The notes: generated from the letters alone by a model not told the origin. DNA of 35,255 nucleotides from Candidatus Fermentibacterota bacterium (GCA_030607835.1 JAUWJE010000001.1:1-35255), one strand, 5' to 3'. Positions 3,220-34,725 are shown, counted from the first letter of the stretch. Numbers and translations are program-made.

Positions 3220-3244
3220 CTCTCTGTTCCCTTTTTGGAGGAAC

Positions 3245-6360: not shown

Positions 6361-6413
6361 ATTGATCCGGCAGCCTTAATCTTCCGCGGTGGTCTGGATG
6401 AATCCCTTTCCGA

Positions 6414-8664: not shown

Positions 8665-8675
8665 TTCAGATAATA

Positions 8676-9075: not shown

Positions 9076-9126
9076 ATGTGACAAATTGCTGCAAGTTATA
9101 GCGTTAGACTTTCGCCAACGATTGGA

Positions 9127-10476: not shown

Positions 10477-10478
10477 TA

Positions 10479-10619: not shown

Positions 10620-10680
10620 TGTATAATAACTATCATTATTGTTCTCTTATAATTGTTTTCATAAAGCTGGAGGAAAACGT

Positions 10681-11817
10681 ATGATCAAGCTTCTTGTTAA
10701 TCATTCCGATTTGCTGAAAGGTCTGAACTGTGTAGCAACAGCGCTTCCTGCCAGAAGCAGTCTTCCATATCTGACCAATGTTCTTCTTGAGACAGTGGGA
10801 GACAGGTTGAAGCTATCAGCAACTGATCTGGATACTACAGTAATAACCACCATTCCTGCATCAATAACAACAGCTGGTTCAATAACACTTCCTGGAAAAA
10901 AGCTGCATGAAATTGTACGTGAATTACCTGAGGAAGAAGTAAGAATGAGCGCTACAGGTAACAGAATAACCATAAACTGTGGCCAGGGATCATTTGCTCT
11001 AAGCGGCAGTTCAAGTGAGCAATTCCCTTCACTTCCTTCAAAGAGCAGTACGGATCCATGTATCGTTCCTGTAAGTGTTTTGTCTGACGCCATAAGAAAG
11101 ACTTCTTATGCGGTAGCGAGAGATGATTACAGAGCGACGTTGAATGGAGCGTTGCTTGAAATAGGTGAAAACGGATTTGAAATGGTTGCTACAGACGGGC
11201 ACAGATTGAGCTGTATCAGTCTTGGAAGTATAAAATCAGATAACAGTATCAAGGCCCTTATAACGCAAAAAGCTCTTAATCTTTTCGCAAAACTCTCCTC
11301 TGCTGGTGATGTAAATATACGTTTCAAGGGTTCGCAGATATCATTTGAATTTGATAATACGATGATATTCAGTCGAACTATAGATGGTGAGTATCCTCCT
11401 TACAAGAAAGTTATTCCCAAAGAAAACGACTGTATTCTCCACACTGATAGAGAAAATCTTATATCTGTACTGAGACGTGTTAAAACAATGGCTAATCCAT
11501 CAACACATCAGGTTAAGTTTTCACTTGAAAAAGATTCCATTGTAATTCAGGCGGAAAGTGCGGATGCCGGAGAGGCAAAAGAAACACTTGTCTCTGAGTA
11601 TGAAGGAAATCCGTTCCAGATAGGTTTCAACTGTAATTTCCTTATGGAGATTCTCCGTAACATGCACTGTGAAAGAATAATAATGAGAATGAAGGATAGT
11701 AATACAGCTGTACTCATTAACGACGAAGAAGAATCAGAAGGAAATGATGCATACCTCGCACTGATTATGACCGTTAAACTCTCTAAAACACTGGAAAATC
11801 AGGTGGAAAGAGATTAA
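10681..11817 (+). CDS. dnaN: DNA polymerase III beta sliding clamp DnaN
   Basis: An ATG at 10681 is preceded by GGAGG (10668-10672). MIKLLVNHSDLLKGLNCV... shows the three-domain clamp pattern. The track ORF begins at an upstream TTG (10639), which I reject. Confidence 0.95.
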   Translation: MIKLLVNHSDLLKGLNCVATALPARSSLPYLTNVLLETVGDRLKLSATDLDTTVITTIPASITTAGSITLPGKKLHEIVRELPEEEVRMSATGNRITINCGQGSFALSGSSSEQFPSLPSKSSTDPCIVPVSVLSDAIRKTSYAVARDDYRATLNGALLEIGENGFEMVATDGHRLSCISLGSIKSDNSIKALITQKALNLFAKLSSAGDVNIRFKGSQISFEFDNTMIFSRTIDGEYPPYKKVIPKENDCILHTDRENLISVLRRVKTMANPSTHQVKFSLEKDSIVIQAESADAGEAKETLVSEYEGNPFQIGFNCNFLMEILRNMHCERIIMRMKDSNTAVLINDEEESEGNDAYLALIMTVKLSKTLENQVERD

Positions 11818-11862
11818 GGGCAATAAGGGTATAATGGTGCGCTTTGTGAATAATTGATACTA

Positions 11863-14101
<2,239 letters not shown>

Positions 14102-14135
14102 AAAATTTAGAAATAAAGCATAATTATTACCTAAA

Positions 14136-16607
14136 ATGCTTGGAGGCGGACATTTGAGCGGCAGCACAGGTAAGATAATAGATATCATAGACATAGAAGA
14201 GGAGATGAAACGCTCTTATATGGATTATTCCATGAGCGTTATAGTCTCGAGGGCACTTCCCGATGTCCGAGATGGGTTGAAGCCTGTACACAGACGAATT
14301 CTGTATTCGATGTACGAACAGAAACTTACGCACAGGCGACCGTATAAGAAATCCGCTGCAGTAGTGGGGGATGTTCTTGGAAAATATCACCCGCATGGTG
14401 ATAGCGCTGTCTATGACGCAATGGTACGGATGGCGCAGGATTTCTCGCTGAGACACCCTCTGATAGATGGACAGGGAAACTTCGGATCGGTAGATGGAGA
14501 TCTGGCAGCAGCGTACAGATATACGGAAGCAAGAATGTCCAGAATTGGCGAAGAACTGCTTCGAGATATCGATAGCGAAACAGTCGATATGACCCCCAAT
14601 TTCGATGATCGCCTGAAAGAACCGTCCATCCTGCCCGCCGGCATGCCACATCTTCTCGTTAATGGATCATCTGGAATTGCTGTTGGTATGGCCACGAATA
14701 TACCGCCACATAATCTCAGAGAAGTTGTAGAAGCCTGCTGTAGAATCATAGAGAACCCCGACCTGTCAGATGAAGAGCTTTATGAGATCATCAAGGGGCC
14801 GGATTTTCCAACAGGAGGAATAATCTCGGGACTTCGGGGAATCAGAAATGCTTACAGTACCGGAAAGGGATTAATTCATGTCCGCGGTAAAGTGACTACT
14901 GAAGTAACACCAAAAGGCAGGGAAGCAATCATAATTGTGGAAATTCCCTATCAGGTAAACAAGACGTCACTTATCGAATCTATAGTAGATCTTGTCAAAC
15001 ATAAGAAGATAACGATGATAGCTGATCTTCGGGATGAGTCCGACAGAGATGGCATGAGACTGGTAATAGAACTTAAGAAAGATGCTGTAACTGAAATAGT
15101 CCTTAACCAGCTTTACAAACACACCACGCTTGCAAAAACATTCGGAGCCAACTGTCTTGCTCTTGCTTCCGGAAGACCATTAAGGCTAAATCTCCGACAG
15201 ATGATTGATTACTACATTGAACATCGTCATGATGTCATTGAGAGAAGGATAGCTTTCGACCTGAAAAAGGCGGAAGCAAGATCACACATTGTCGAAGGTC
15301 TGCTAAAGGCTCAGGATGTGATAGAAGAAGTAATAAAAGTTATTAGAGAATCTGGAAGCAGCGAAGAAGCAAAGAAAAAACTTATAGAAATATTTGATTT
15401 CTCCGAAATACAGGCTCAAGCCATTTTGGAAATGCGCTTAAGAAAACTTACCGGACTTGAGCGGGAAGAACTGGAAGTAGAGTTTGAAGAACTCCGGGTT
15501 CTCTTGGAAGGACTTCGAATAATGGCCTCGGATCGCTCAGAACGCATGAAGGTTGTGTCAGAGGAACTAAGGGAAGTTGCCGAGATATATGGAGAAGACA
15601 GGAAAACGGAAATAGAACCTTATGCAGCAGATGAATTTGATATTGAAGATCTTATACCTGATGATGCAATGGTAATTACCCTCTCTCGTGAAGGATACGT
15701 AAAGAGGCTTTCAACAGATACTTATAGAAGTCAACACAGAGGTGGAAAAGGAATTACTGGAGCGAGAACGAAGGAGGAAGATTCAATTGATCAGATTTTT
15801 GTATCCTCCAACCATAGTTATATACTGTTTTTCACCAATCAGGGAAGATGCTACTGGTTAAAAGTTTACAAGATTCCTGAAGTTGGAAGAATCAGCAAAG
15901 GGAAAGCTATAGTGAATCTTCTGGATCTCGAACCGGAAGAACGTCCTGTCGCGAACGTATGCGTAAAAGAATTCGATGAAAACCGCTTTATCCTGATGGC
16001 GACCAGCAATGGATTAATTAAGAAAACCCCTCTTTCCAGTTACAGCCATCCTCGACGGAACGGCATATGGGCGATCAAGCTTGATGAAAAGGCAGAACTC
16101 GTCAGTGCTTCATTGACAAACGGAAACAGCCGGGTTCTGCTTGCACTGGCAAACGGGAAGGCCAATAGATTCAGTGAAAAAGAAATACGTTCCATGGGAA
16201 GATATACAAGAGGAGTAAGAGGAATAAACGTTACTGGAGATGACCGCCTCGGTGGAATGGTTATCATGCATGTGCCAGGAAGCATGCTCACAGTGACCGA
16301 GAACGGGTTTGGAAAGAGAACGTGGTCTGAGGATTACAGACTTACTCACAGGGGAAGCGCCGGTGTTATTAACATCCGTAATATTCAGCGGAATGTCCGT
16401 GTAATTTCAATAATGCACGAGGCAAAAGAACATGAGTTAATCCTAGTTTCAGCCCTCGGCATGATAAAACGGTTACAACTCGAACAGATTAGAGAAATGG
16501 GTAGAAGCACTATGGGTGTAAGACTTATGAATCTGCCGGATAACGACAGAGTTGTTGACGCTGCTGTAGTCCAACCGGAGGATGAACAGGTTCCAATAGA
16601 GGAGTAA
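14136..16607 (+). CDS. gyrA: DNA gyrase subunit A
   Basis: 823 aa. Motifs include [12 protein letters not shown], the [14 protein letters not shown], the catalytic [11 protein letters not shown], and C-terminal beta-pinwheel repeats. An in-frame TTG at 14154 sits 7 nt after GGAGG (14142-14146) and is an alternative start. Confidence 0.97.
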
Positions 16608-16876: not shown

Positions 16877-19800
16877 ATGAATGAACCTCCTCCTGTGGAA
16901 CAGGATATGGCAACGAAATGGTTCTCCGCAGTTAGTAACCTTCCGTCTTCTGCTGTTGTTGTAGCCGTCCTCGAATTCTTCCAGTTGAGCTGGACATGGA
17001 ATCAGATAGGACCGAGTACAGGATTAACATTTAATGAATTCCTCAGCCTGTTATATCGAGTGTTTCAGGTACTTGCAGAAACGCAAGGAGATATATCTCT
17101 TGTTCGGAGCCTGATACAGATGGGTTCTAACTGGCCTGAACGTTTCGGATTTATCCTCGAGAGAACGAGAATCGGCGGAGGAAATGTCATACACGCTCTG
17201 GAGAAAGCACAGGAACTGATACCTGAAATACCACATGTTTCTGAAAATTCTCTTGTTGATTTCGCTCTGGAAACAGGATGGTATCTTCTCGGAAACGAAA
17301 GCCTCCCTGTATGGAGAGCTGTTGGTAGAAATGGAGAATCTCTTCTGAGAAAGCTGCGGGGATTTTCAATACAGATGGAGTCAATAAAGGTTCTTTCAGG
17401 ATTTCTTGGTCGACTGGAGGAGACGGATCAGCTTCAAAATCTGCTTGAAGATTCAATTCCAGATGAAATAGAAAAAATAGTCGGCTCACTCGAAGAAACC
17501 CTGCTTTCAGAAGTGCTTGAACTGCTTTCAGAGGAAGCGATCAGAGCGCTTAAAAGACGATCTGAAAGAGATATGTGCCTGGAAATCATAGGCATTCCCG
17601 CACGGGACTGTTCTCATTATGAATACGGACAAGCCATAGCCGAGATAATGTTGTTCAGGAGTAGAGGGAAAGCGGAGAGAAAGGTATTTATAGAGGTTTG
17701 TGCCTGTTGCGCGACAAACGAAAACGCCTGTCCTCTTATTGAAATCGCTAAACTGTCGGCTGAACGCAGGGAAACACCTTTTTATGATTCGATAAAGACA
17801 GAGCACTATTTTCGATTCATACCAATCGCTCTTTCGATTCTTGAGGGCAAAGAAAAATCTCCGGAATACAGGCGAGTTACTAATTCCATAGGTCGACTTA
17901 TGGATGCAATACTGAGTCAGGATGATCCAGTCATATCACTGGAATCACTTGAGAAGTTAATGGCGGAATCAGAAATCAATTTCGATAAGCTTCTTCCGGC
18001 TATGATCCTGTTGCTTCGATCAACCAATGAATCATTGAAACATGAGCACGTTATCAAGAGCGAGATATTCGTCTCGATACTTGATCTGTTTGATGAAAAT
18101 TACCGCCGAAGAATTCTTGAAGGAGAACACACAGACTGGCTTGCTCCCCTTGCTAATGGAACCATTGATTCCTGCACGAAGGTTGTTGAGGCGCTTGGGA
18201 GAATTTCAAACCGATCTCTCCGAAGTCGCTTTATGGACAAAGTGATAGCTCCTCTCTTTCAGGAGATAGGATCGGAGGAGTTAATATTTAGCGAGTTAAT
18301 CACTTCGGCCGTCTCCACATACAACAGAGATATGAATTTGGAACAGCTCAGAAATGAAGAAACAAGTATCCTTGGTCAACTATTCAGAGCAGAAGACAGG
18401 AGCAAAGCGCTTAAGGTCTCAATGAATCGACTCCTGCGGATACCTGGCATAGAGGAAAAAAGCGCAAACGATCTTATTTACTGCGCCCGTAATCTTTGTG
18501 AGACTCTTTCACAGCAGGCGGTCTGGCTGGAGAAATCAGGTCACAGGATCTTCAGCAGGTTCCTCTCAAGAGGATTGACGGCTTTTGTTAAAACTCTGGT
18601 TGAGTATCCTGAGGTTTCGGAACACCTGACAAGCGGTAACCTGATGAGAGAATTGCTGACCAGACTGATTCCTTCAAAGGAAATGGAAGACAGCAATGTA
18701 GCTCTATGGCAGCTGAAAACCGCTTCGGTGTTTTTCGGTGAGACTATTCCATACTCGGTGGAAATACTTGCAGGCCGACCTGATTTAGTTGTTTCATATC
18801 TTCGAGATATTACAGAACTTGCTGTTGGCTCGATGCATGGTGAACTTGCAGGAGCTACTTTCCTTTCCTGGATGTCGAACAGACTTGAGAAAAGACTCAT
18901 AGAAGAATATGCACGAAAACTTCATAGCAATTCAATTCTTACAGAACTGCAGAATGATATTGACGGATCACAGTTAATGAATGCCTGGAGAGGTGTTCGA
19001 AACAGCTCGTCAACAATACTGAGAGATGCAGTTGATTCACTGAAAGTTGTAACCCAGCAGATACTTCACAGAAAAATTGTAATAAGAGAAGGAAGAAAAC
19101 TAGTTGAAGGTTTTATAGAAAATGGATCTGAGGAACTTATTTCAAAAGTCTCTGTGTCTCCGGACAGAAAAGAGGTTACAGAGCTGCAAAAAATTGCGGG
19201 AGATTTCGAGCTGATAGATATTTTCAGAATCATGGAGGGAAGAGAACCGCCTGGAAAGAAAAAACAGCTTCCTGCGAACTTAGAGCAGTTTTTCTATTCG
19301 CGCGAACGTGACCGCGAGTGTCCTCCGGGAGAGAATCCCAGCAGGTACTGGAGGAGCAAAGCCTTCTCTACTCTGGAGAATGTACTTATTGACATCATTC
19401 TGCTCTATACAAGCAATGAAAGCCTATCGAAGATTGAACAGATGATGGATGATTTTATCGAGATTGTTGGTTATCTTGGTGCCGATGAAGTCTTCAGACC
19501 GGAAATAATTTTTACAGCATTGGAAAAATCCCTTTCAAAGACGGAAAGAGGAAGAAAGCTGACCGTTCAGACTGTGGAGAAAAAGCTTGAGAAAAACATT
19601 TACAGGCTCATGTGGCGCAGAAAAGCAACGAGCAAAACAGCCGAATCTGTAAGAGGATTGATTCCGGAGAAAAAAATAACCAACATGCTTTTTGATAGAA
19701 TTACCAGAGAAAATACATCAAGAGAACAGATTCTCTTCACAAAGAAATACGCAAGAATATTCGCATCGATTGAAAGCATAATCATGAAGCACAAGGACTC

Positions 19801-20275
19801 GGAGATACAATCTGCCAGATCGGTTCTTCAACATATCTGGATATTTAATTCGGAAGCGGTCAGACCCTCTTCAACGGTCGAAACCGCAAGAGACGCAGTA
19901 GAAACAATAACCCAGTTCTTCCTCGAAATAGGAGCCAGAACAGGGGCTGTAACCGCGCTTGAAGCCGGTACGATAAGCCTGGGCATGAGACGTAAATACA
20001 GAGATAACGCCAACACAGTTGCCATACTGATCAGATGGACGCAGGACTCATCCAGGGGAGACCTTCTTGCGCTTGTTGAAGCGCACCACCCTCTTCTTGA
20101 AGCAGTAAGCCGAGACAGCGAATTGATTCAGCTTATTGATGATATGTGGGATGACGGTAAGGCACGGTTATACATCAGGTCACTCGCGGATCGACCGGAC
20201 AGACTGAAAGACCGTTTGCTTCATCATATCGGAATGAAGTCCAAATGGAACATCAATGGCATCAGATATGTCTGA
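16877..20275 (+). CDS. Large (1132 aa or more) hypothetical protein. It looks all-helical, with no motif I can assign.
   Basis: A long uninterrupted ORF with coding-like composition. There is no terminator after gyrA, and its 3' end overlaps the asparaginase ORF by 20 nt. I see no Walker A motif, TM segment or signal peptide. The same frame is stop-free back to 16586. Confidence 0.8.
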   Translation: MNEPPPVEQDMATKWFSAVSNLPSSAVVVAVLEFFQLSWTWNQIGPSTGLTFNEFLSLLYRVFQVLAETQGDISLVRSLIQMGSNWPERFGFILERTRIGGGNVIHALEKAQELIPEIPHVSENSLVDFALETGWYLLGNESLPVWRAVGRNGESLLRKLRGFSIQMESIKVLSGFLGRLEETDQLQNLLEDSIPDEIEKIVGSLEETLLSEVLELLSEEAIRALKRRSERDMCLEIIGIPARDCSHYEYGQAIAEIMLFRSRGKAERKVFIEVCACCATNENACPLIEIAKLSAERRETPFYDSIKTEHYFRFIPIALSILEGKEKSPEYRRVTNSIGRLMDAILSQDDPVISLESLEKLMAESEINFDKLLPAMILLLRSTNESLKHEHVIKSEIFVSILDLFDENYRRRILEGEHTDWLAPLANGTIDSCTKVVEALGRISNRSLRSRFMDKVIAPLFQEIGSEELIFSELITSAVSTYNRDMNLEQLRNEETSILGQLFRAEDRSKALKVSMNRLLRIPGIEEKSANDLIYCARNLCETLSQQAVWLEKSGHRIFSRFLSRGLTAFVKTLVEYPEVSEHLTSGNLMRELLTRLIPSKEMEDSNVALWQLKTASVFFGETIPYSVEILAGRPDLVVSYLRDITELAVGSMHGELAGATFLSWMSNRLEKRLIEEYARKLHSNSILTELQNDIDGSQLMNAWRGVRNSSSTILRDAVDSLKVVTQQILHRKIVIREGRKLVEGFIENGSEELISKVSVSPDRKEVTELQKIAGDFELIDIFRIMEGREPPGKKKQLPANLEQFFYSRERDRECPPGENPSRYWRSKAFSTLENVLIDIILLYTSNESLSKIEQMMDDFIEIVGYLGADEVFRPEIIFTALEKSLSKTERGRKLTVQTVEKKLEKNIYRLMWRRKATSKTAESVRGLIPEKKITNMLFDRITRENTSREQILFTKKYARIFASIESIIMKHKDSEIQSARSVLQHIWIFNSEAVRPSSTVETARDAVETITQFFLEIGARTGAVTALEAGTISLGMRRKYRDNANTVAILIRWTQDSSRGDLLALVEAHHPLLEAVSRDSELIQLIDDMWDDGKARLYIRSLADRPDRLKDRLLHHIGMKSKWNINGIRYV

Positions 20276-22293: not shown

Positions 22294-22614
22294 ATGGCGA
22301 AGCTCGACATACTCCGCGAGGGCGAGAAGCAGGCCAGACAGGTACTGGAGAACGCTAAAAAAGATGCCCGGCGGATAACACAGAGCATTCCAGAGATGAT
22401 TGAGGAATTGAAACGGAAGAATGACGATTATCTTGGAAAAGTTGCGACCGAAGCTGAAACGGCTGTGGATAAGATTGTAATTCAGCTGAAAGAAAAGCTC
22501 GAAGGAAAGACAGACAGGAAGCTCGAATTACTGTCGGAGTATACCGTGAATCTTGAGAAGACCGCAACTGAGAGTCTTCGTGAACACATACTCAGGGGCG
22601 GGAAAGAGGACTGA
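22294..22614 (+). CDS. A/V-type ATPase peripheral-stalk subunit (H/G-like)
   Basis: 106 aa from the ATG at 22294 (MAKLDILREGEKQARQVLENAKKDARR...). It is an all-helical charged protein in the first position of an H-I-K-E-C-F-A-B-D operon. I reject the upstream TTG extension (22186) in the track. Confidence 0.55.
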   Translation: MAKLDILREGEKQARQVLENAKKDARRITQSIPEMIEELKRKNDDYLGKVATEAETAVDKIVIQLKEKLEGKTDRKLELLSEYTVNLEKTATESLREHILRGGKED

Positions 22615-24650
22615 TGAGCCTTGATGCGATATCGAAGATAGAGGTTCTATGTCATGCTCAAACCCGTGAGAAAGTCCTTGAGAAGATAGAGTCCTCCGGA
22701 AAAGTCCACCTGATAAATATGTCGGAAATTGAGCAGTCGGAAGACATGAGATTTCTCAAACCCGCGACGTTGAATACCGATGACCTTTCCGATAAGATAT
22801 CGAGTCTGAAGAAGGCAATTCAATTTCTCGAAGACGAAGCAGCCGGAGAGATGAATCAACAGCCTTCAATACCACCATCCCTTTCTGAAAAAGAGCTAAT
22901 GGCGCTGTCAGAAGACGAGAATCTTCTGGAGAAAGCTCGAAGAGCATGGTTTATAGCAATCCGGAAAGCCAAGCTTGAAGGCACGGAAAAGGAACTTGAA
23001 CAGGAGAGAAATTTTCTTATTGAATGGGAAGGACTGCCGGTTCCATTTGAAGATCTTAGAAAGAGTGAATCTTACCTGCTTGTTGCAGGCACTATTGAAA
23101 AAGAAGGAATTCAGCAATTGCATGAACTGGTAAATGAGAATCCTCTTTTTCATCTTGAAGTAATTCAGAAGAAAAAAAAGCTCGAGCGGGTTATCGCGGT
23201 CTTTCACGAATCCGTATCCAGAGAAGTATTGCAGTCTCTCGGAGAACTTGGATTCTCTCAACAGGACTTCGGATCCAGACAGGGGATGGTGAAAGACAAC
23301 CTGAAAGAAATCTGTCGTGAGCAGAAACTTGTTGACAGCAAAATGAGATCGCTACATGAAGAAGCTGTGAAACTGTCTGCGGAGATGAAACGATTCCGAA
23401 TTCTTCTTGACGCTGCTGGGCTGCTTCTTGAAAGGCTGAATGCAACAAGAACAGCGCGCGCCAGTACCAGTGTATTCATGTTCAGAGCATGGAAACGCAC
23501 AAGAGATCTCCGCAGCTTGAGAAAGAACCTTGCGCAGCTGGGAGAAGTGGCTGTTGAGGAAATTGAACCTGAGAAAGACGAGACCCCTCCTTCTCCAATA
23601 ACTGAAACCACAGCGGCTTCACCATATACGCTATTAACGGATATGTACGGTCAGCCCACGAGAAGAGATCCCGACCCGACGCCCCTGATAGCACCTTTTT
23701 ACGCCCTTTTCTTCGGTATCTGTATCGGTGATGCGGGATACGGAATAGCTCTTGCTCTTGGATCCGCATTAGGCTGGTATCTTGTGCGCAGAAGACACGG
23801 AAATCCAAGGTTATTCCAACTTCTGTTCCAGGGGGGATTAGCGAGTATTCTGGTCGGAATCTTCCTCGGAGGCTGGTTCGGAATTTCCTTTGACAGTCTT
23901 CCAGGTTTTCTTCAGGCTCCGGCCCTGATGCTTAATAAGCTTGTGCCCGGATATCAGGTGGGTGAGGCCGGACAGGAAGGTTTCGGAGTATCGAAGCAAT
24001 TTCTCTATTTAACACTTGCTCTGGGGCTGGTGCAGCTCACGGCGGGCATAGTTATCAATCTAAGGAAACGCTGGAGAGCAGGAGAGAAATTCGCAGCCGT
24101 TGTAGATCAATCCGGATGGTTGCTTGCCACTGCAGGCCTGTTCCCATGGCTGTTCAATCATTACCTGCTCAACGGTTCTCTCTATAACGTTAATGGACCG
24201 CTTGATAAAGTATTTACCACGATGCTTGCCGCAGGTGCTTTGCTCATATTCATAATGGGAGGAAGGGAAGCAAAGGGATTCGGAAAGATCGGAACTGGAG
24301 CTTATGCCCTGTACGGCATAGTGAATCTTCTCGGAGACGTACTATCGTATTCAAGACTGTTTGCCCTTGCCCTTTCGAGCGCAATAATCGCTCAGGTGAT
24401 AAATCAGATGGCCGGAATGCTGGTCAACGAACTTGGAATACCGGTAGTCGGAGTAATTCTGGCCATAATGGTTGTTGTCGCTGGGCATATCTTTAACATG
24501 GCAATGGCAGCTTTAAGCGGTTTTATTCATACGGCAAGGCTGCAATTTGTAGAATTCTTCGGGAAATTCTACGATGGTACAGGAGTACCGTTCAAACCGC
24601 TGAGATATGAACCGAAATTTGTGCATATTGAGAGAGAAAATAGTAAATAA
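22614..24650 (+). CDS. atpI: A/V-type ATPase subunit I (membrane a-subunit)
   Basis: 678 aa. It has a cytoplasmic N-terminal half and a multi-TM C-terminal half, with the conserved LSYSRLFALALS (essential Arg) and HTARLQFVEFFGKFY motifs. Confidence 0.9.
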   Translation: MSLDAISKIEVLCHAQTREKVLEKIESSGKVHLINMSEIEQSEDMRFLKPATLNTDDLSDKISSLKKAIQFLEDEAAGEMNQQPSIPPSLSEKELMALSEDENLLEKARRAWFIAIRKAKLEGTEKELEQERNFLIEWEGLPVPFEDLRKSESYLLVAGTIEKEGIQQLHELVNENPLFHLEVIQKKKKLERVIAVFHESVSREVLQSLGELGFSQQDFGSRQGMVKDNLKEICREQKLVDSKMRSLHEEAVKLSAEMKRFRILLDAAGLLLERLNATRTARASTSVFMFRAWKRTRDLRSLRKNLAQLGEVAVEEIEPEKDETPPSPITETTAASPYTLLTDMYGQPTRRDPDPTPLIAPFYALFFGICIGDAGYGIALALGSALGWYLVRRRHGNPRLFQLLFQGGLASILVGIFLGGWFGISFDSLPGFLQAPALMLNKLVPGYQVGEAGQEGFGVSKQFLYLTLALGLVQLTAGIVINLRKRWRAGEKFAAVVDQSGWLLATAGLFPWLFNHYLLNGSLYNVNGPLDKVFTTMLAAGALLIFIMGGREAKGFGKIGTGAYALYGIVNLLGDVLSYSRLFALALSSAIIAQVINQMAGMLVNELGIPVVGVILAIMVVVAGHIFNMAMAALSGFIHTARLQFVEFFGKFYDGTGVPFKPLRYEPKFVHIERENSK

Positions 24651-24684
24651 TACTCTTTCCGTTTAAAGAGAAAGGAGATATTGA

Positions 24685-25134
<450 letters not shown>

Positions 25135-25141
25135 TCAGAAG

Positions 25142-25729
25142 ATGTCTCTCGAAGCAATCCTTTCAAAGATAGAGGCAGATGCGAATGAAGAAGCCGCAAT
25201 CATCCGCAGGAAAGCGCTAGATGAAAAAGAGAAAGAAAGAGATAAGCAGACCGGAGAGATTGAAGAAAAGCGAAAAAGAGATCTGGACAGGATCAAGGCA
25301 AGGGTTCAGGATATGCAGAAGCGAAAGGAATACCACGTTCAAAGAGAAGCTGTCAGACAGCTGATGAACGCCCGGAGAACTCTTATGGATGAAGCAATCC
25401 GGAAGGCTGTTATTAACCTTTCCTCTGAGAACGAGGAAAATTACCTTTCAATGATAGCATCGCTTCTTAACAAATGTGATATTGAGGGGGAGGTCGAAGT
25501 TCTGATCTCTTCTGCGGATGAATCACGCATAACTGCAAAATTCCTTGAAAGGCATTCCACAGATTCCAAGAAATATATCCTTTCAGATAACAGGCACAAT
25601 GAAACAGGTGGAATCATCTTCCGGGCTGGCAGGATAAGCCAGAACGGAACGTTCCCTATGATAGCAGAACTGATTCATGAAAGGCTGGTGATTGAGCTTT
25701 CTCAGATTATACCTCTGGAGAAAGACTGA
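25142..25729 (+). CDS. atpE: A/V-type ATPase subunit E
   Basis: 195 aa from the ATG at 25142 (MSLEAILSKIEADANEEAAIIRRKA...). It has a charged N-terminal helix and a globular C-terminus. The track's upstream extension (25034) lies inside atpK and is rejected. Confidence 0.85.
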   Translation: MSLEAILSKIEADANEEAAIIRRKALDEKEKERDKQTGEIEEKRKRDLDRIKARVQDMQKRKEYHVQREAVRQLMNARRTLMDEAIRKAVINLSSENEENYLSMIASLLNKCDIEGEVEVLISSADESRITAKFLERHSTDSKKYILSDNRHNETGGIIFRAGRISQNGTFPMIAELIHERLVIELSQIIPLEKD

Positions 25730-25732
25730 AAC

Positions 25733-26707
25733 ATGTCGGATAGCTTCATATATGCTAATGGAAGAATTAGCGGCAAGGAAACAACGCTGCTGGACGATAG
25801 AATGTGGCAAATGCTAATGTCCGCACAGAATGAAGAAGAAGTGCTTCGATTTCTGGGAGACACCTGGTATGGAGGCTTCATGCAGCATCATAGTCTTGAG
25901 GACTGCTTCATCAATGCCATGGAAGTTACAGAGGAAGAACTTCTTGAGCTTTCAGAAGATGAAAGACTGGTCAGAGGGCTTCTTCACAGAAGAGATGTCA
26001 GAAATGCCAGATATATCTGGAAGAACCTGCTTTCCGTTAAGAAATCTCCTGAGGAAATAGAAATTGAGCGACCTGGATTAATATCTGTGGATACACTGGA
26101 AAAGGCAGTGCTCTCCGCTGAAGCAAGGGAAGAACTGCCAGATCTGTTCAGAGAGACTCTTGAGGAGCTTCTCGAAACGGAGGGGATCAGTGGTCCCGAT
26201 CTGGATCGTTTAATGGATAATCTTGCTGCAGAGGTTGAATATGAAGAACTTCCCTGCATAAGCTCCGGGTTCAGGACTTTCGTAATGACAAGACTGGAGC
26301 AGAAGAATTTCCTTACCGCCGGTCGATGCAAACTTGCAGGATCTTCAAAACAGGAAGCTCAGGAACTGCTGCTTCATGGCGGATACCATTCCGGGGAGGA
26401 GATTGCCGAGGCATATCAGAGGAATACACTTCCCTTGCTCATTGCAGAGAATCCAGGCTTTGAAGAACCTGCCAGGGCATTTGCGGATGCCCTTGATTCC
26501 GGATCGTTCTTCTCCTTCGAAAAGGAATGCGACAGACAGCTTCTGGAGCTTCTTGAAAAAGGAGCTTTCCCTGTTTTCGGCCCATCCCCGCTGGCAGCAT
26601 TCATTATTAGAAGGGAGATGGAAATTAAACATCTCAAACTTCTGGTCGCTGCAAAAACCGCCGGAGTAGATTCGAGCAGGCTTCAGGAACGCCTGCCCAG
26701 GGGATAG
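25733..26707 (+). CDS. atpC: A/V-type ATPase subunit C (eukaryotic d homologue)
   Basis: 324 aa. The operon position and the N-terminal YANGRISGKETTLL pattern are typical of this subunit. Confidence 0.85.
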   Translation: MSDSFIYANGRISGKETTLLDDRMWQMLMSAQNEEEVLRFLGDTWYGGFMQHHSLEDCFINAMEVTEEELLELSEDERLVRGLLHRRDVRNARYIWKNLLSVKKSPEEIEIERPGLISVDTLEKAVLSAEAREELPDLFRETLEELLETEGISGPDLDRLMDNLAAEVEYEELPCISSGFRTFVMTRLEQKNFLTAGRCKLAGSSKQEAQELLLHGGYHSGEEIAEAYQRNTLPLLIAENPGFEEPARAFADALDSGSFFSFEKECDRQLLELLEKGAFPVFGPSPLAAFIIRREMEIKHLKLLVAAKTAGVDSSRLQERLPRG

Positions 26708-26716
26708 GAGCGCAGC

Positions 26717-27046
26717 ATGTCGCAAGGTGGAATAGCATTTCTTGGAGACGCTGACAGCGTTCTTGGTTTCAGGGCTCTTGGAGTCGAAACGATTGTACCG
26801 GATGACGCTGATGATGCTAGAAAGCAATTTGAAAGATTAGTGAAGCAGGAAACATCGGTTATCATGATTACCGAGAAAATGATGGATTATCTGCAGGAGC
26901 AGATGGAAGAAGTAGTGCATATGGCCGTTCCAGCCGTCGTGGTTCTTCCGGGTATTACCGGAACGCTGAAACGCGGTGAGGATACTATCAGAGAACTCAT
27001 AATCAGGGCTGTTGGAGTGGATTTGATGTCGGATGAGCAGAAGTAG
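26717..27046 (+). CDS. atpF: A/V-type ATPase subunit F
   Basis: 109 aa. IAFLGDADSVLGFRALGVE is a typical subunit F N-terminus. Confidence 0.85.
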   Translation: MSQGGIAFLGDADSVLGFRALGVETIVPDDADDARKQFERLVKQETSVIMITEKMMDYLQEQMEEVVHMAVPAVVVLPGITGTLKRGEDTIRELIIRAVGVDLMSDEQK

Positions 27047-27082
27047 GCTCAGGGACCGGGTAAAACCTGCCGGAGGCGATGG

Positions 27083-28852
27083 ATGATAAAAGGAACAATC
27101 GATAAAATTGCGGGTCCGCTGGTTGTCGCGGACGGAATGAAAGACGCCAGGATGTACGACCTGGTCTATGTGTCAGACTACGCTTTGATAGGTGAGATCA
27201 TCGAATTGAAGGGTGACAGGGCATCTATTCAGGTGTACGAAGAAACCGGAGGACTTAAACCTGGAGATCCTGTTGTAGCTACAGGAGAACCCCTTTCGGT
27301 TGAACTTGGTCCGGGTCTTCTTACGGCTATTTACGACGGTATCCAGCGCTCACTGGACGAGATACGCAAAGAGGCCGGAGACTGGATCACAAGAGGAATT
27401 ACCATAAGGGGTCTGGATCACAAGAAGGAATGGGATTTCAAGCCCGTTGCGGAAACAGGCATGGAAGTCTCCGGGGGTGAGGTTGTGGGCGAGGTTCCCG
27501 AAACTGAAGTAATTATGCACAGAGTTATGGTTCCCCCTGGCGTAAAAGGGGAAATAACCTGGATGATAGATGAGGGTTCTTACAATGTCGATACTATCAT
27601 AGCAAAGGTTAAGGAACCTTCCGGGGAAACAAGGGAACTTCAAATGTACCATAACTGGCCTGTTCGGAAACCACGTCCGGTAGCTGAGAAAAAAGCTCCC
27701 GAAGAACCTCTTTTAACCGGCCAGAGAGTTATCGATGCTTTCTTCCCGCTTGGAAAAGGTGGAACGGCCTGCGTTCCAGGACCGTTCGGCAGCGGTAAAA
27801 CCGTTATTCAGCATCAGCTCGCTAAGTGGGCTGACGCGGAAATAGTCGTTTACGTTGGGTGCGGCGAGCGGGGAAACGAAATGACAGACGTTCTTCAGGA
27901 ATTCCCTGAACTTGAAGATCCCAAGACCGGCAAGCCTCTTATTCTCAGAACCGTACTTGTTGCAAATACAAGCAATATGCCTGTTGCCGCGCGAGAGGCA
28001 AGCGTTTATACAGGCATAACCATCGGTGAGTATTTCCGGGATATGGGTTATTCAGTTGCCCTTATGGCTGATTCCACAAGCAGGTGGGCTGAAGCGATGA
28101 GAGAGATGTCCGGAAGACTCGAAGAGATGCCCGGAGAAGAAGGATACCCCGCATACCTGGGAACGCGGATTGCTGAGTTCTACGAACGGGCCGGGAATGT
28201 GAAGTGTATCGGAGGAGACAGGAGCGGAGCACTCACAGTTGTCGGCGCCGTCAGTCCTGCCGGCGGAGATCTTTCTGATCCTGTTGTACAGGCCACACTC
28301 AGAGTTGTTAAGGTCTTCTGGAGCCTTGAGGCGAGACTTGCATACGCAAGACACTTCCCCGCCATTGGATGGCTTGACAGCTATTCTCTCTATACCAACA
28401 ACCTGAAAGAGTACTACAACAGGGAGCTTGGAGATGAATGGGTCTTGATGATGAAAGAAGCCATGGCACTGCTTCAGCGTGAAGCGAATCTTCAGGAGAT
28501 AGCCCGTCTGGTTGGAGCAGAATCTCTTTCCCCTGAGGACCAGCTGATTCTATATACGGCAAGATCTCTGAGGGAGGATTTCCTTCATCAGAACGCCTTC
28601 CATGATGTTGATACTTTTACTTCCATCACAAAACAGAAGATCATGATGGAAGTAATAATGCACACACACAGTGAAATGGAAAAGGCGCTGAACACCGGTG
28701 TATCTCCCCGGAAACTGTTCAGCCTGCCTCTGAAAGAGGAAATAACCAGAATGAGGTATATCCATGAGGATAATATCTCAGACATTTCTGCAATCAAAGA
28801 ACATGTAACTTCACAGATCAACGGTCTGATCGAGAAGGAACAGACCGCCTGA
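27083..28852 (+). CDS. atpA: A/V-type ATPase catalytic subunit A
   Basis: 589 aa. It has the P-loop [16 protein letters not shown], and the non-homologous insert typical of A subunits. GGAGG lies upstream. Confidence 0.97.
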
Positions 28853-28866
28853 GGGGGCATAGGGAT

Positions 28867-30273
28867 ATGATCAGAGAATACACAACAACCGTTGAGATAT
28901 CCGGCCCTCTGATGCTTGTTGACGGCGTTGAGGGTGTAGCGTACGAAGAACTGGTGGAAATAGAGCTTCCCACTGGAGAAATCCGTAACGGGAAGGTTCT
29001 TGAGATAGACAGCCGCATGGCGCTTGTACAGCTCTTCGAAGGGAGCAGCGGTACGGATATTTCCAGAAGCAAGGTTCGCTTCCTCGGGAAACAGGTCGAG
29101 CTTGGTGTTTCGGAGGAGATGCTTGGCAGAGTGTTCGATGGGCAGGGGCGTCCAAGAGCTCCGTTTGATACAGCTCCTCCTATAGTTCCCGAAAAGATGG
29201 TGAATATAAACGGAGCCCCCATCAATCCTTACGCAAGGGACTATCCGGCCGAGTTCATTCAAACCGGATTCAGTTCTATTGACGGAATCAATACGCTGGT
29301 GAGAGGGCAGAAGCTTCCAATCTTCAGCGGTAACGGACTTCCGCAGTCCATTGTTGCGGCTCAGATCGCGCGTCAGGCGAAAGTGCGTGGAAGTGAAGCA
29401 AGCTTTGCTGTCGTCTTTGCTGCGATGGGAATTACATTTGAGGAAGCCGATTACTTCATCCGTGATTTCCGTTCGACAGGAGCCATGGACAGGGCAGTTG
29501 TTTTCATGAACCTTGCGGATGATCCTGCCATTGAGCGTATCTCAACACCGAGAATGGCGCTGACAGCAGCGGAATACCTTGCTTACGAGAAAGACATGCA
29601 TATCCTTGTTATTATGACAGATATGACTAATTACTGTGATGCTCTCAGAGAGATAGCCGCTGCCAGAAAAGAAGTTCCCGGAAGGCGGGGTTATCCCGGT
29701 TACCTTTACACAGATCTTGCATCGATTTACGAACGGGCGGGAAGAATCAAGGGGAGAAAAGGATCGATTACACAGATCCCTATTCTTACAATGCCGGAAG
29801 ACGACAAGACTCATCCAATTCCCGACCTTACCGGTTATATCACTGAGGGTCAGCTGATCCTCAACAGAGAGCTTCACAAGAAGGGGATCTACCCTCCCAT
29901 GGATGTTATGGAATCTCTTTCGAGACTCAAGGATAAAGGTATTGGGGAGGGGAAGACGCGCGGAGACCACGCAGATCTTTTCAATCAGCTCATGGCAGCC
30001 TACTCGGCCGGAAAGGATGCAAGAGAACTTGCAGTTATCCTTGGCGCGGCAGCGTTGAGCCCGCTTGATCAGAAGTACCTTAAATTCGCTGGGGAATATG
30101 AAAAGCTGTACATCAGCCAGGGAGAACATGAAAACAGGAATATTGACGAAACTCTGGACCTTGGCTGGGAACTTCTGAAGCTTCTCCCAAGGGAGGAAAT
30201 GAAACGAATTGATCCAAAACGCCTTGATAAATACTGGCCTGTGAGCGACAGGGCAAAAGCAGCGGGAAGCTGA
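28867..30273 (+). CDS. atpB: A/V-type ATPase subunit B
   Basis: 468 aa. Conserved motifs include [22 protein letters not shown] and [30 protein letters not shown]. Confidence 0.97.
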
Positions 30274-30911
30274 TGGCGATAAAGGTTCGTGCCACCAGAA
30301 TGGAGCTTCTTCAGCTCCGGAAAAAGGTAGGCCTGGCTCAAAGGGGTCATAAGCTCCTGAAGGACAAACTTGACGAACTGATGCGCCAGTTCAAGATATT
30401 GATAAAGGAATATGAAGGAGCCAGGAGCGAACTCGAAAAGGAACTCAGCATTGCTTACGGCGAGTTCCTTTTCGCGAGGGCCGCAATGACGGAACCTGGT
30501 CTTCTCGATGCTCTTCGATATCCCGGAGCCGTAGCAAATGTGCAAACCTCCAAAAGGAAGATCATGAACCTGATTCTACCCGTATTTGAGGTGTCCATAA
30601 AGGGGAATGTTCGTAATTACGGAATGTTCGACACGCCCGTGGAGCTGGATGAAGCTCTGGAGGTTTATAAAAGGATACTGCCCCACATCGTGAAGCTGGC
30701 GGAACAGGAAAAGGCTATAAGCCTGCTTGCCAGGGAAATCGATACCACCAGGCGTAGAGTCAACGCTCTTGAATACAAGCTGATCCCTGAACTTCAGGAA
30801 GCCATAAGGTCTGTTAGATTGAAACTGGACGAAATGGAACGCGGAAATCTTACGCGGCTTATGAAGGTGAAGGAAATGGTTGAGGAAAAACGCAAGAAAA
30901 ACCGCGCCTAG
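30273..30911 (+). CDS. atpD: A/V-type ATPase subunit D (central stalk)
   Basis: 212 aa. TRMELLQLRKKVGLAQRGHKLLKDKLDEL is the canonical subunit D N-terminus. There is a 1-nt stop/start overlap with atpB. Confidence 0.92.
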   Translation: MAIKVRATRMELLQLRKKVGLAQRGHKLLKDKLDELMRQFKILIKEYEGARSELEKELSIAYGEFLFARAAMTEPGLLDALRYPGAVANVQTSKRKIMNLILPVFEVSIKGNVRNYGMFDTPVELDEALEVYKRILPHIVKLAEQEKAISLLAREIDTTRRRVNALEYKLIPELQEAIRSVRLKLDEMERGNLTRLMKVKEMVEEKRKKNRA

Positions 30912-31034: not shown

Positions 31035-31673
31035 ATGATGAAATTGATTTTCAAGTTTAAACAGGGAAGGGAAATATTGAAAATTATATTTATGCTTTTT
31101 GTGGTCTTTTCATTCTCCAAGATAACGAGCGCTGATTATACGGTAAACTACGGCTGGGAAAGTACAGACACCATTCTGGGTATGCGTCCTGCCGATTGTG
31201 TAATAGCTCAAATTGCCACCGATCCTGTACACGGAGGTTCCCAGTCGCTTTATCTTGAACGAGTTTCTGATGATACTCCCCAGGCATACATAGCCTGGAT
31301 TGTAGGCCTTCAGGATGGCGATGAGATTACTGTCAGCGTATGGTTTTACGATGATACGCCGGGATCAGCCCCAAGAGGAAGAACCTGGGCACACTGGAAT
31401 GACAGCCCCGGAGATGTGAACGTTTACAGCGGGAGTGCAAGCGGTCCTGGCTTTTTCACAACAGGTATAGGCTGGGAAGAAATAGAATGGACATGGACTG
31501 TTGTAGACAGTCATACCGGTCTTGTTATTGAAGCAAGGATATACTCAAATCCGGGTGATGCTGTCTGGATCGATGATATGACCGTCACCGTTCCCGATCA
31601 TGCTACCATTTATACTCCTGGAACCGTCGCTCTTGAAAACAGCACCTGGGGTGACATAAAAGCGGCATTCTAG
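31035..31673 (+). CDS. Secreted hypothetical protein, possibly a beta-sandwich/CBM-like fold
   Basis: The signal peptide is ...KIIFMLFVVFSFSKITSA|DY. The mature part is rich in W, G, D and T, as in jelly-roll binding modules. An in-frame TTG at 31077, preceded by GGGAAGGG, is an alternative start. A promoter-like TTGATA-17-TATCAA (31002-31030) would place the TSS after the 31035 ATG. Confidence 0.6.
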   Translation: MMKLIFKFKQGREILKIIFMLFVVFSFSKITSADYTVNYGWESTDTILGMRPADCVIAQIATDPVHGGSQSLYLERVSDDTPQAYIAWIVGLQDGDEITVSVWFYDDTPGSAPRGRTWAHWNDSPGDVNVYSGSASGPGFFTTGIGWEEIEWTWTVVDSHTGLVIEARIYSNPGDAVWIDDMTVTVPDHATIYTPGTVALENSTWGDIKAAF

Positions 31674-32535: not shown

Positions 32536-33207
32536 ATGTCCAGATTACTTTTTCCATTTCTTGTTCTTCTGATGATGCTTTCATCATGCTACTATGGAGC
32601 CATGCAGGGCGCGCACACACTTGGAGAGGATCACCTTACAGTAACAGGAGGCGTGACCCTTCCAGCGTATTTCTCAGCTGAATCGAAAAAGGAGGCTGAA
32701 GACAGCAGAGTAGATTTCCTTCAGGTATATCCATCGTTAAGTATTGCCACAGGGGCAACAGACAGGATTGATCTTGGAGCATCGTCTTTCGGATATGGCG
32801 TTGGACCCTTCATCAAATACAACCTGATGCCGCCTTCGAACCCAACCGCAATATCGGCACTATTGAACATGAACTACATTATTCCCATGCAGGTTATGCT
32901 GCCTAGAATATCCCTCAGTGCAGGACACCGTTTTGACCGTGATCTTGAGATATTCATAGGATGTGACGCTGGATACGGACCTGATCTCGCTAATATCCCC
33001 AGAACGCAGGACGGCGGACATGACTGGGATTTAGTGGAGAATTCATTTTTTTCCTGCATACGAACCGGCTGCATCTATGAATTGAGAGGTCCGGGCAGTC
33101 CGAACGCAAACAGGACGTACATACCTGAATCCATCATGTTCCAGTTTTCCATTCCACTTGATCTTACAAGGGGTATGATACTTGCCGGGCTTGCTGTCAC
33201 ATATTAA
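32536..33207 (+). CDS. Putative lipoprotein, possibly an outer-membrane beta-barrel
   Basis: The signal peptide has the lipobox LSS|C (MSRLLFPFLVLLMMLSSC). There is an alternating beta-strand-like pattern and a C-terminal aromatic residue (...GLAVTY). Confidence 0.6.
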   Translation: MSRLLFPFLVLLMMLSSCYYGAMQGAHTLGEDHLTVTGGVTLPAYFSAESKKEAEDSRVDFLQVYPSLSIATGATDRIDLGASSFGYGVGPFIKYNLMPPSNPTAISALLNMNYIIPMQVMLPRISLSAGHRFDRDLEIFIGCDAGYGPDLANIPRTQDGGHDWDLVENSFFSCIRTGCIYELRGPGSPNANRTYIPESIMFQFSIPLDLTRGMILAGLAVTY

Positions 33208-34125: not shown

Positions 34126-34139
34126 TAATTCTATCTCCC

Positions 34140-34168
34140 TTTACATTACTGGAATAAGTCGTAAGAAT
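34140..34168 (+). promoter_or_regulatory. Possible sigma70-like promoter for the riboswitch leader
   Basis: TTTACA (34140-34145), a 17-nt spacer, then AAGAAT (34163-34168). This lies just upstream of the first aptamer. Confidence 0.3.
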
Positions 34169-34185
34169 ATTACCCGGCGGTAGAG

Positions 34186-34277
34186 CACCGCCATGCAAAC
34201 CGGAAGAGATTCCGGGACGCAAAGCCACGGATCCCAGCCGCTGTTTGGGGATGGCGGAAGGAAAGCCGGGTTGCCGT
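34186..34277 (+). promoter_or_regulatory. c-di-GMP-I (GEMM-I) class riboswitch aptamer, copy 1
   Basis: GCAAACC, then the CCGGAA-GAGA-UUCCGG hairpin (GNRA loop 34206-34209), then GGGACGCAAAGCC (34214-26), then a second stem, then GCCGGGUUGCCG (34265-34276). This aligns segment by segment with the V. cholerae Vc2 aptamer core (GCAAACC-hairpin/GAAA-GGGACGCAAAGCC...GCGGGGUUACCG), recalled from memory. Confidence 0.8.
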
Positions 34278-34366
34278 TTGACCATTGCAAACCGGAAGAG
34301 ATTCCGGGACGCAAAGCCACGGGTCCCAGTCCGGGAAACCGGGAAGGACAGCCGGGTTACCAGACG
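34278..34366 (+). promoter_or_regulatory. c-di-GMP-I (GEMM-I) class riboswitch aptamer, copy 2
   Basis: It has the same core as copy 1. The 44 nt from 34286 match 34194-34237 with one mismatch. P2 is GUCC...CCGG-GAAA-CCGG...GGAC, and the 3' element is GCCGGGUUACC (34351-34361). A GCGG-GAAA-CCGC hairpin (34368-34390) follows, then the SD GAGGAGG. Confidence 0.8.
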
Positions 34367-34408
34367 TCCGTTGCGGGAAACCGCTGACGGATTGAGGAGG
34401 TGCTCACG

Positions 34409-34678
34409 ATGAGGTGGATACCACTGCTTATGGTTGCACTTCTACCGTCGGTTCTGCTGGCAAGCGTGACTGTATCAACCAGCATTGCCAATGCTGACAC
34501 TTTTGTCACCATTGCGCGAGATGCCATGGATGATGGAGATTACGTTACCGCTTTTGCTCTTTATGAGTGTGCTCTTCGAAGAGAACCCCACTCTTCAGCA
34601 GCCCTTGCAGGTCGCCTGGCGGCCAGGGCGCATTTGGAGGAGTGCATTGGAACAGAGCTAATGGTAGCGTCACGCTGA
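34409..34678 (+). CDS. Small exported protein (89 aa) downstream of the tandem riboswitch
   Basis: The ATG at 34409 sits 8 nt after GAGGAGG (34394-34400). The signal peptide is MRWIPLLMVALLPSVLLASVTVSTSIANA|D. The mature part is a TPR-like helix pair (DGDYVTAFALYECALRREPHSSAALAGRLAA). The track start at 34400 is a GTG inside the SD. Confidence 0.6.
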   Translation: MRWIPLLMVALLPSVLLASVTVSTSIANADTFVTIARDAMDDGDYVTAFALYECALRREPHSSAALAGRLAARAHLEECIGTELMVASR

Positions 34679-34699
34679 ATGCAGGCCGTCAGTGCACAC

Positions 34700-34725
34700 G
34701 GGACGGGCTCTTCGGAGTCCGTCCC
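34700..34725. terminator. Strong hairpin between convergent genes (UUCG tetraloop)
   Basis: GGGACGGGCTC-ttcg-GAGTCCGTCCC forms an 11-bp stem with one G-U pair. It lies 22 nt after the small ORF stop and 2 nt after the serS stop. There is no clear U-tract on either strand. Confidence 0.5.

Follow-up and report, generated by a model that had tools for sequence, protein, structure and literature searches.

The locus described here raises a question of ligand recognition and one of architecture: what is sensed by an RNA that carries the fold of the cyclic di-GMP-I riboswitch class (c-di-GMP-I, or GEMM-I) twice over, with uridine in both copies where the class has the ligand-contacting G20 (numbering of the Vc2 aptamer of Vibrio cholerae), and how do two such aptamers control one gene? 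The locus lies in a stretch of 35,255 nucleotides (nt; JAUWJE010000001.1:1-35255, hereafter the window) from an uncultured member of Candidatus (Ca.) Aegiribacteria (Fermentibacterota), which NCBI taxonomy assigns to the FCB (Fibrobacterota-Chlorobiota-Bacteroidota) group. The riboswitch lies in the 5' leader of a conserved gene whose product is a small, exported, TPR-like protein. As judged from the sequence, there is a little more than an even chance that the region 34176-34405 is a dual-aptamer riboswitch of the c-di-GMP-I structural class with one translational platform, c-di-GMP as its ligand and OFF logic. The leader is a variant of a well-known kind of riboswitch, not a new kind of system; its fold is that of a known class, and what sets it apart is the pyrimidine at position 20 with C92 kept and the abutting of two aptamers that appear to share one platform.

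A conserved tandem of c-di-GMP-I-class aptamers

Both copies match the Rfam model RF01051 (c-di-GMP-I) over its full length and well above its gathering score of 35 bits: 34184-34278 scores 60.2 bits (E = 1.5e-9) and 34279-34364 scores 63.6 bits (E = 2.2e-10), all features of the leader being on the + strand. These are the sole Rfam matches across the 35-kb window. The first-pass annotation of this DNA, which had proposed a tandem c-di-GMP-I-class riboswitch upstream of an exported-protein gene and had suggested this alignment with inspection of the G20, A47 and C92 columns, is borne out in this respect.

Aptamer 1 extends over 34194-34275, with U20 at 34194, the paired region P2 at 34195-34220, A47 at 34221, P3 at 34223-34272 and C92 at 34274. 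Aptamer 2 extends over 34286-34361, with U20 at 34286, P2 at 34287-34312, A47 at 34313, P3 at 34315-34358, C92 at 34360 and C93 at 34361. The repeat period of 92 nt noted earlier is exact (G21 at 34195 and 34287), and so is the count of 43 identities in 44 positions, 34194-34237 and 34286-34329 differing only at A34231/G34323. These 44-nt 5' halves span position 20 to the first strand of P3; the distal P3 stems diverge between the copies, and P3 of aptamer 1 carries one A-A mismatch (34231/34263). In both aptamers, P2 is capped by a GAGA loop of the GNRA tetraloop type, the covariance-model alignment retains the unpaired C and the G of the C44-G83 contact, and the GACGCAAAG junction contributes A47-A49. 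All class-conserved pocket and tertiary-contact bases are kept in both copies, except that position 20 is U.

In the pocket of c-di-GMP-I aptamers, A47 intercalates between the ligand bases, C92 forms a Watson-Crick pair with G-beta, and G20 touches G-alpha on its Hoogsteen edge. A47 (34221, 34313) is invariant in the 17 distinct tandem leaders compared below, as is C92 (C34274, C34360), the retention of which had been claimed from the window alone. The uridines U34194 and U34286 fall, as had also been claimed, in the model column that corresponds to Vc2 G20 (column 11, consensus G), which sits immediately 5' of the G21-C46 pair. The posterior for this column is high for copy 1 and ~0.5 for copy 2; the latter value is due to gap placement in the unpaired 5' flank, and the adjacency of the uridine to G21 is unambiguous.

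Relatives were collected by two scans. A search of one genome per GTDB species with the U20-specific core pattern TGCAAACC-N12-GGGACGCAAAGCC returned 35 stretches, 15 of which come from metagenome-assembled genomes (MAGs) of Ca. Aegiribacteria or Ca. Fermentibacteria, or from further MAGs, and carry the whole window leader; of these 15 loci, 13 show two abutting RF01051 matches, L122 has just one aptamer and L144 runs into a contig end. Another 8 loci were retrieved from metagenomes by means of the aligned downstream protein, and several of these are contigs already among the MAG loci; all eight carry the leader, seven with tandem RF01051 matches and one (L162) with a single aptamer. Altogether, the survey of related genomes suggested in the first-pass annotation finds the same leader and the same gene in ~20 Ca. 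Aegiribacteria/Fermentibacteria contigs. Over 34130-34724, identity to the window is 91% for L137 and 89% for L126, and synteny of the leader, the small gene and the convergent serS extends to many of the related loci.

The 17 distinct tandem leaders have a mean column identity of 85%, and covariation was computed on them with slid alignments and 500 shuffles as controls. Cells of the proposed helices are paired in 97.0% of cases, as against 26-49% in the slid controls; 13 pairs show changes on both sides versus 6.2 +/- 1.6 in the shuffles, none of which (0/500) reaches 13. This covariation supports a 5' hairpin (P0), P2 and P3 of both aptamers, and a hairpin at 34367-34391 between aptamer 2 and the ribosome-binding site. 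Kept whole in ~20 related contigs and with covarying helices, the leader is not a product of chance. A 64-residue open reading frame (ORF) listed across both aptamers (34193-34387, +) had already been called spurious: its AUG arises from A19-U20-G21 and is gone in relatives with C, A or G at position 20. A protein-coding reading of this ORF is ruled out, the frame being broken by indels and stops in relatives.

Position 20, the history of the repeat and the ligand

In aptamer 2 of the 17 leaders, position 20 is U in 16 and A in one (L160), never G, and this U is kept though the rest of the joining region J1/2 varies in length and sequence. In aptamer 1 the same position is C in 8, U in 6, A in 2 and G in 1; the two A20 cases are L160 and L130, L160 alone having A20 in both aptamers. 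PMC3764141 counts G20 among the class's highly conserved positions and shades columns with over 95% conservation in its supplementary seed-alignment figure. As a baseline, viral contigs were scanned with a loose GEMM pattern, which mostly matched coding sequence and was filtered for the P2 stem; tighter patterns gave few matches. In the small set of 42 unique GEMM-I-like sequences so obtained, 36 have G at position 20 and 6 have A; none has a pyrimidine. The window has neither the G20 of c-di-GMP-I nor the A20 of GEMM-Ib, the subclass sensing cGAMP (3',3'-cyclic GMP-AMP), and of the combination U20/A47/U92 of RF03168 it has U20 and A47 but C92. The RF03168 consensus (U20 ... UUGUC) couples U20 with U92.

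U20 together with C92 also occurs outside the clade, at L121, L123, L124, L127, L128, L131, L133-L135, L140-L143 and L149-L154. The hosts are Pengzhenrongella, Pirellulaceae/Stieleria, Peribacillus, Paenibacillus, Sporomusa, a Clostridiaceae MAG, an Actinobacteria MAG, a Geobacteraceae MAG (L131), Gammaproteobacteria MAGs (L135, L152) and a six-species Steroidobacteraceae-like gammaproteobacterial group, in which CCCGC-U precedes GCAAACC. The outside-clade stretches pass an Rfam clan model, except L129 (Ruminiclostridium MAG, no match). Among the genes inspected after outside-clade U20 aptamers are pilus/PilM-like, adhesin-like/RTX-like, chemoreceptor (methyl-accepting chemotaxis protein, MCP) and sensor genes.

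The first-pass annotation had taken the repeat for a recent duplication in which one helix had diverged. This does not hold, as the tandem is common to Aegiribacteria and Fermentibacteria diverged at the species level, and the 5' halves are homogenised genome by genome. In the 32 bases that follow position 20, aptamers of one genome differ by a mean of 1.41 and those of different genomes by 2.74, and 0 of 10000 permutations gave a within-genome value as low (p<1e-4). The duplication is thus old, the tandem being shared by ~20 contigs of diverged genomes, and gene conversion (concerted evolution) keeps the 5' halves alike, as their greater likeness within than between genomes shows. In all six cases of U20 in aptamer 1, the window included, the P2 hairpins of both aptamers match exactly; the 33-nt cores of these genomes are identical in four and differ by one base (G50) in two. 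Most simply, U20 of aptamer 1 in the window would be a converted copy of that in aptamer 2.

Single-aptamer orthologs stand upstream of the same small gene in L122 (380-469; U20) and L162 (337-425; G20). The 5' hairpin and the post-aptamer hairpin are present in both, as are the CAGACG/CAAACG tail and GGAGGUGCUC; these single-aptamer forms could be real deletions, ancestral forms or the result of assembly collapse of the repeat. In L160 (2245-2430), A20 makes both tandem aptamers GEMM-Ib-like.

The ligand is most likely c-di-GMP, presumably bound more weakly than by G20 aptamers. This is the simplest reading because position 20 of aptamer 1 admits any base and because a G20 ortholog (L162) controls the same gene, and the pattern at position 20 points to relaxed or tuned recognition rather than to one new ligand defined by U20. 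Vc2 G20U still binds c-di-GMP, at an affinity in the low micromolar range (PMC4686816), A20 defines the cGAMP subclass and Vc2 G20A binds both ligands (PMC6140456), and the double mutant G20U/C92U serves as a binding-dead control (bioRxiv 10.1101/617340). A lowered affinity would suit a switch governed by binding equilibrium. Smith et al. (2010) reportedly found other bases to be more conserved than G20 and C92, and a biologically useful affinity in many mutants of the pocket. The first-pass annotation had suggested a specificity different from both known subclasses; its observation of U20 in both copies is real, but, given that aptamer 1 takes all four bases and L162 has G20, U20 is not the mark of a single new ligand for the entire leader. 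Local gene context is uninformative on the ligand, as the window contains no GGDEF, EAL or HD-GYP gene.

Weighing against c-di-GMP is the fact that G20 is a direct contact, the replacement of which by U in aptamer 2 or by any base in aptamer 1 may mean a different ligand or an aptamer 1 that does not bind. The former possibility, which we regard as unlikely but worth stating in full, is that U20, at least in aptamer 2, would read the Hoogsteen edge of adenine in a U-A Hoogsteen pair while C92 pairs with guanine, so that aptamer 2 would sense 3',3'-cGAMP or another A-containing dinucleotide; aptamer 1, often with a possibly protonated C20 reading G, could sense c-di-GMP, and the leader would be a two-input device in some genomes. 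Such a change of specificity would fit the aptamer 2 pattern (nearly always U, once A, never G, despite a variable J1/2), A20 being the cGAMP determinant, and protonated bases at position 20 are documented in the pocket of the class (PMC6140456). The coupling of U20 with U92 in RF03168 is as expected if U20 tracks a change of ligand base, and the U20/C92 aptamer of L131 belongs to Geobacteraceae, a family in which cGAMP riboswitches are common (PMC8835794). It is at odds, however, with the free choice of base in aptamer 1, where U occurs only where gene conversion homogenised the 5' halves, with the G20 single-aptamer ortholog before the same gene, and with the typical c-di-GMP-regulon genes (PilM-like, RTX-like, MCP) after other U20 aptamers; nor is a cGAMP synthase known here, though none was searched for.

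An extended form of this idea appears quite unlikely: any pyrimidine at position 20 would act as a triplex-style Hoogsteen reader (U20 of A, protonated C20 of G), aptamer 2 would sense an A-containing dinucleotide, and the two aptamers would be coupled inside one helix that sequesters the ribosome-binding site, giving a cooperative or two-input switch. The physical coupling would lie in P1 of aptamer 2, which abuts the pocket of aptamer 1, and in the position of both aptamers inside the sequestering helix. We know of no cGAMP-type signalling in the phylum Fermentibacterota. It is improbable, finally, that aptamer 1 is a structural relic without ligand binding and aptamer 2 the sole sensor. The unconstrained position 20 of aptamer 1, the A-A mismatch in its P3 in the window and its lack of a contiguous P1 would fit a relic; against it stand the other class-conserved bases of aptamer 1, which are all kept (A47-A49, C92, GNRA loop, C44, G83), its scores of 54-68 bits in all relatives together with its covarying helices, and the natural single-aptamer versions L122 and L162, which retain the 5' context of aptamer 1.

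A probable single expression platform for two aptamers

The Shine-Dalgarno (SD) region at 34394-34405 comprises the SD sequence GAGGAGG (34394-34400) and the spacer GGUGCUC (34399-34405). Its positions 34396-34405 (GG-A-GGUGCUC) form the 3' strand of a long-range helix with the anti-SD strand GAGCACC-G-CC at 34183-34192, both in the minimum free energy (MFE) structure of the leader and in RNAalifold. In the MFE structure, the anti-SD:SD helix encloses both aptamers, with a representative pair probability of 0.91; the RNAalifold consensus of the 17 leaders independently recovers it, and it is 98.7% paired in them with one-sided changes only. With its end 5 nt short of G21 in aptamer 1, the helix occupies the position expected for the 5' strand of P1, and in L122 and L162 it is the only helix able to enclose the aptamer. 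GGAGGUGCUC is almost invariant in all leaders, and the bases directly 3' of it vary.

The 5' end of the leader forms the P0 hairpin GGCGGU-AGAGC-ACCGCC (34176-34192), paired in 99% of cells in the 17 leaders, with one compensatory G-C to A-U swap (L139) and several wobbles. Because the anti-SD strand overlaps the loop and the 3' arm of P0, P0 and the SD-sequestering helix are mutually exclusive. The two are close in predicted energy: states forced into P0 or into the anti-SD pairing differ by -5.0 to +2.7 kcal/mol across the 20 leaders scored.

Between the aptamers there is only one strand of the putative P1 of aptamer 2 and a 6-nt J1/2. This P1 would pair CGUUUG (34275-34280) with CAGACG (34361-34366), as indicated by the predicted fold and the alignment; its 6 base pairs (bp) are 97% paired in the 17 leaders, invariant and without covariation. 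At its apex G34280 pairs with C34361 (C93), leaving 34281-34286 as a J1/2 that ends in U20. In Vc2, the apex pair of P1 is G14-C93, and J1/2 consists of nt 15-20, ends in G20, is unpaired and lines the pocket (PMC3764141); the CGUUUG/CAGACG helix is consistent with a P1 of aptamer 2 in the Vc2 layout. A canonical-style P1 for aptamer 1, pairing GGCG (34176-79) with CGUU (34275-78), was considered and rejected: it would have 4 bp including two G-U pairs and a 15-nt J1/2, and it would compete with both P0 and P1 of aptamer 2. As a separate observation, RNAalifold favours a pairing of GACG in the junction of aptamer 1 (34216-34219) with CGUU (34275-34278) over P1 of aptamer 2; both strands are invariant, so that the alignment gives no covariation either way, and the pairing could be an alternative structure of the ligand-free RNA.

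Since the P1 strand of aptamer 2 starts at the base after C92 of aptamer 1, there is neither a linker nor a platform between the aptamers. That the leader consists of two independent riboswitches of the pseudo-cooperative kind, with an expression platform apiece, is therefore very improbable indeed, even though tandem c-di-GMP-I riboswitches are listed under multiple expression platforms (PMC9481103): C92 of aptamer 1 and U20 of aptamer 2 are only 11 nt apart, no terminator, SD sequence or start codon was found between the two aptamers, and a separate platform for each aptamer, the mark of a pseudo-cooperative tandem, is not seen here.

Downstream of aptamer 2, the hairpin UCCGU-U-GCGG-GAAA-CCGC-UG-ACGGA (34367-34391) shows three compensatory pairs in the 17 leaders. 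The GCGG-GAAA-CCGC hairpin described earlier as preceding the SD without a U-tract is its inner part (34373-34384). A terminator scan found no terminator-like site within the leader (34170-34408), and there is no U-tract there; transcription termination was rejected as the mode of control on these grounds. Upstream of the leader, a promoter-like TTTACA, a 17-nt spacer and AAGAAT (34140-34168, +) match the consensus at 9 of 12 positions, which alone is no better than chance; a CCCTTTACA...(A)TAGAAT/TAAGAAT block is kept at the same spacing in related loci. The transcript would start at ~34175, just 5' of P0.

These elements could act together in the following manner. Control would be translational, with one platform serving both aptamers. 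The transcript would begin with P0 (34176-34192), its loop and 3' arm being complementary to the SD and spacer (34396-34405). Aptamer 1 would be closed by the anti-SD:SD helix in place of P1, and aptamer 2, with its own P1, would be nested together with the hairpin 34367-34391 in the J3/1 of aptamer 1. Ligand on both aptamers would stabilise this closed form and hide the SD, whereas without ligand P0 would retain the anti-SD strand and leave the SD open. According to this model, the ligand-bound state is probably OFF.

Several findings weigh against this arrangement. The anti-SD:SD helix lacks compensatory changes and has an A-C mismatch in L160, and P1 of aptamer 2 is almost invariant, likewise without compensatory changes. 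Aptamer 1 lacks a canonical P1 with both strands contiguous with the pocket, and its C93 is predicted to pair inside P1 of aptamer 2. Moreover, a nearest-neighbour model hides the SD without ligand in most leaders, and an ON switch is equally easy to draw. In such a switch, the ligand would stabilise the aptamers together with P0, lock the anti-SD strand and free the SD. We hold this opposite logic to be rather unlikely: an SD-sequestered ground state, computed without a ligand term, is what it predicts, and P0, which ends 1 nt before position 20, could stack below the pocket of aptamer 1; however, P0 consumes the bases matching J1/2 of aptamer 1, which are unpaired and line the pocket in Vc2 (PMC3764141), and the anti-SD:SD helix is compatible with both folded aptamers, so that aptamer folding alone does not open it. 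The mismatch in L160 arises from an anti-SD strand GAGCAUC facing an SD spacer GGCGCUC.

Known systems, gene context and biological meaning

With its combination of U20, A47 and C92, the 'UAC' type of the window lies between the canonical 'GAC', the cGAMP-type 'AAC' and the Rfam variant 'UAU'. Like Vc2 and other RF01051 members, the aptamers have the common fold with a P2 GNRA loop and its receptor in P3, the GACGCAAAG junction, A47-A49, C92 and C44/G83; the leader is co-oriented with the downstream gene, as is usual for c-di-GMP-I, and aptamer 2 has, with its candidate P1, the 6-bp P1 and 6-nt J1/2 of Vc2. Unlike this type, the window has U20 in both copies, an aptamer 1 without contiguous P1, and a predicted long-range SD-sequestering helix set against a 5' hairpin. 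As in the GEMM-Ib aptamers of Geobacter (Gs1761, Gm0970), only position 20 departs from G and C92 is kept, and the ortholog L160 even has A20 twice; in contrast to GEMM-Ib, the base in the window is U rather than A, and no Geobacter-type gene context is known here. The c-di-GMP-I-UAU model (RF03168) shares U20 and A47 in its consensus but has U92 where the window keeps C92, and the best clan match of the window is RF01051.

Tandem arrangements are well represented in the class: c-di-GMP-I forms the most frequent homotypic tandems (347 doublets, 12 triplets), classed as pseudo-cooperative with separate platforms (PMC9481103), and the Bacillus thuringiensis triple tandem Bc3-5 has been characterised (PMC4759541). 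The leader resembles these tandems in having more than one aptamer of the same class, which is expected to sharpen the dose response; whereas the known tandems are serial, complete riboswitches with their own terminators, the two aptamers here abut and appear to share one translational platform. In this respect the leader is closer to the glycine riboswitch, in which two homologous aptamers with a short linker serve one platform and a closing helix adjoins the pocket of the other aptamer; the fold and ligand of the glycine riboswitch are different, and contacts between the two aptamers of the present leader would be hypothetical.

The regulated gene (34409-34678, +) encodes a protein of 89 residues; its N-terminus resembles a signal peptide, and its single weak TPR-like match (Pfam TPR_19, E = 0.0015) stays below the cut-off of the family. 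The ORF listing starts the gene at GTG 34400; ATG 34409 comes 8 nt downstream of GGAGG. Look-ups by exact sequence returned no match for this protein or for the PHP protein encoded upstream. An ortholog stands behind each related leader, with 40-83% identity to the window copy. Most of the orthologs have a lipobox-like V-S-S-C after the hydrophobic segment, while the window, L126 and L137 have S-T-S without Cys; this clade may have gone over from a lipoprotein to a soluble form that is exported. A G+C-rich hairpin GGGACGG...CCGUCCC with an inner UUCG loop can be read from the sequence between the small gene and the convergent serS (34700-34725). The regulated transcript probably ends there; neither strand of the hairpin has a U-tract, and the terminator scan did not call it.

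Further upstream, window positions 909-16607 constitute a chromosomal origin neighbourhood, with parB, parA, gidB, gidA, trmE and yidC on the - strand and dnaA, dnaN, gyrB and gyrA on the + strand; the gap at 8040-9126 might be a place for oriC, rnpA and rpmH. The gidA/mnmG gene is split (- strand, 3216-5074): the ORF 4139-5074 covers Pfam GIDA positions 1-297 and the ORF 3216-4097 covers positions 316-390 plus the C-terminal domains, which reflects a frameshift, a stop, or a sequencing or assembly error. A 1132-residue ORF (16877-20275, +) has no Pfam match at E <= 0.001, and the ORFs 31035-31673 (with a hydrophobic N-terminus) and 32536-33207 have no Pfam matches. Upstream of the riboswitch locus lies a V/A-type ATPase operon (22614-30911, +) with subunits I, E, C/AC39, A, B and D.

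What is known of GEMM-I specificity rests mostly on the switch between G20 and A20, that is, between c-di-GMP and cGAMP. An entire clade of an uncultured phylum is now seen to hold a pyrimidine at this ligand contact, which is U in aptamer 2 and either C or U in aptamer 1, and scattered U20/C92 aptamers are found in Actinomycetota, Planctomycetota, Bacillota, Gammaproteobacteria and Geobacteraceae. These U20 leaders are natural test RNAs for whether position 20 tunes affinity or changes the ligand, and they bear on what the orphan Rfam 'UAU' variant binds. Should the RNA do no more than bind c-di-GMP weakly, it is ordinary: a well-conserved representative of a class that is very common. The abutting aptamers with one translational platform would be a compact form of dual-aptamer control in a class otherwise listed under multiple platforms (PMC9481103), and they offer a natural test case for coupling between two aptamers. 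For the organism itself, the leader marks a small secreted protein as a member of the cyclic-dinucleotide regulon in Aegiribacteria.

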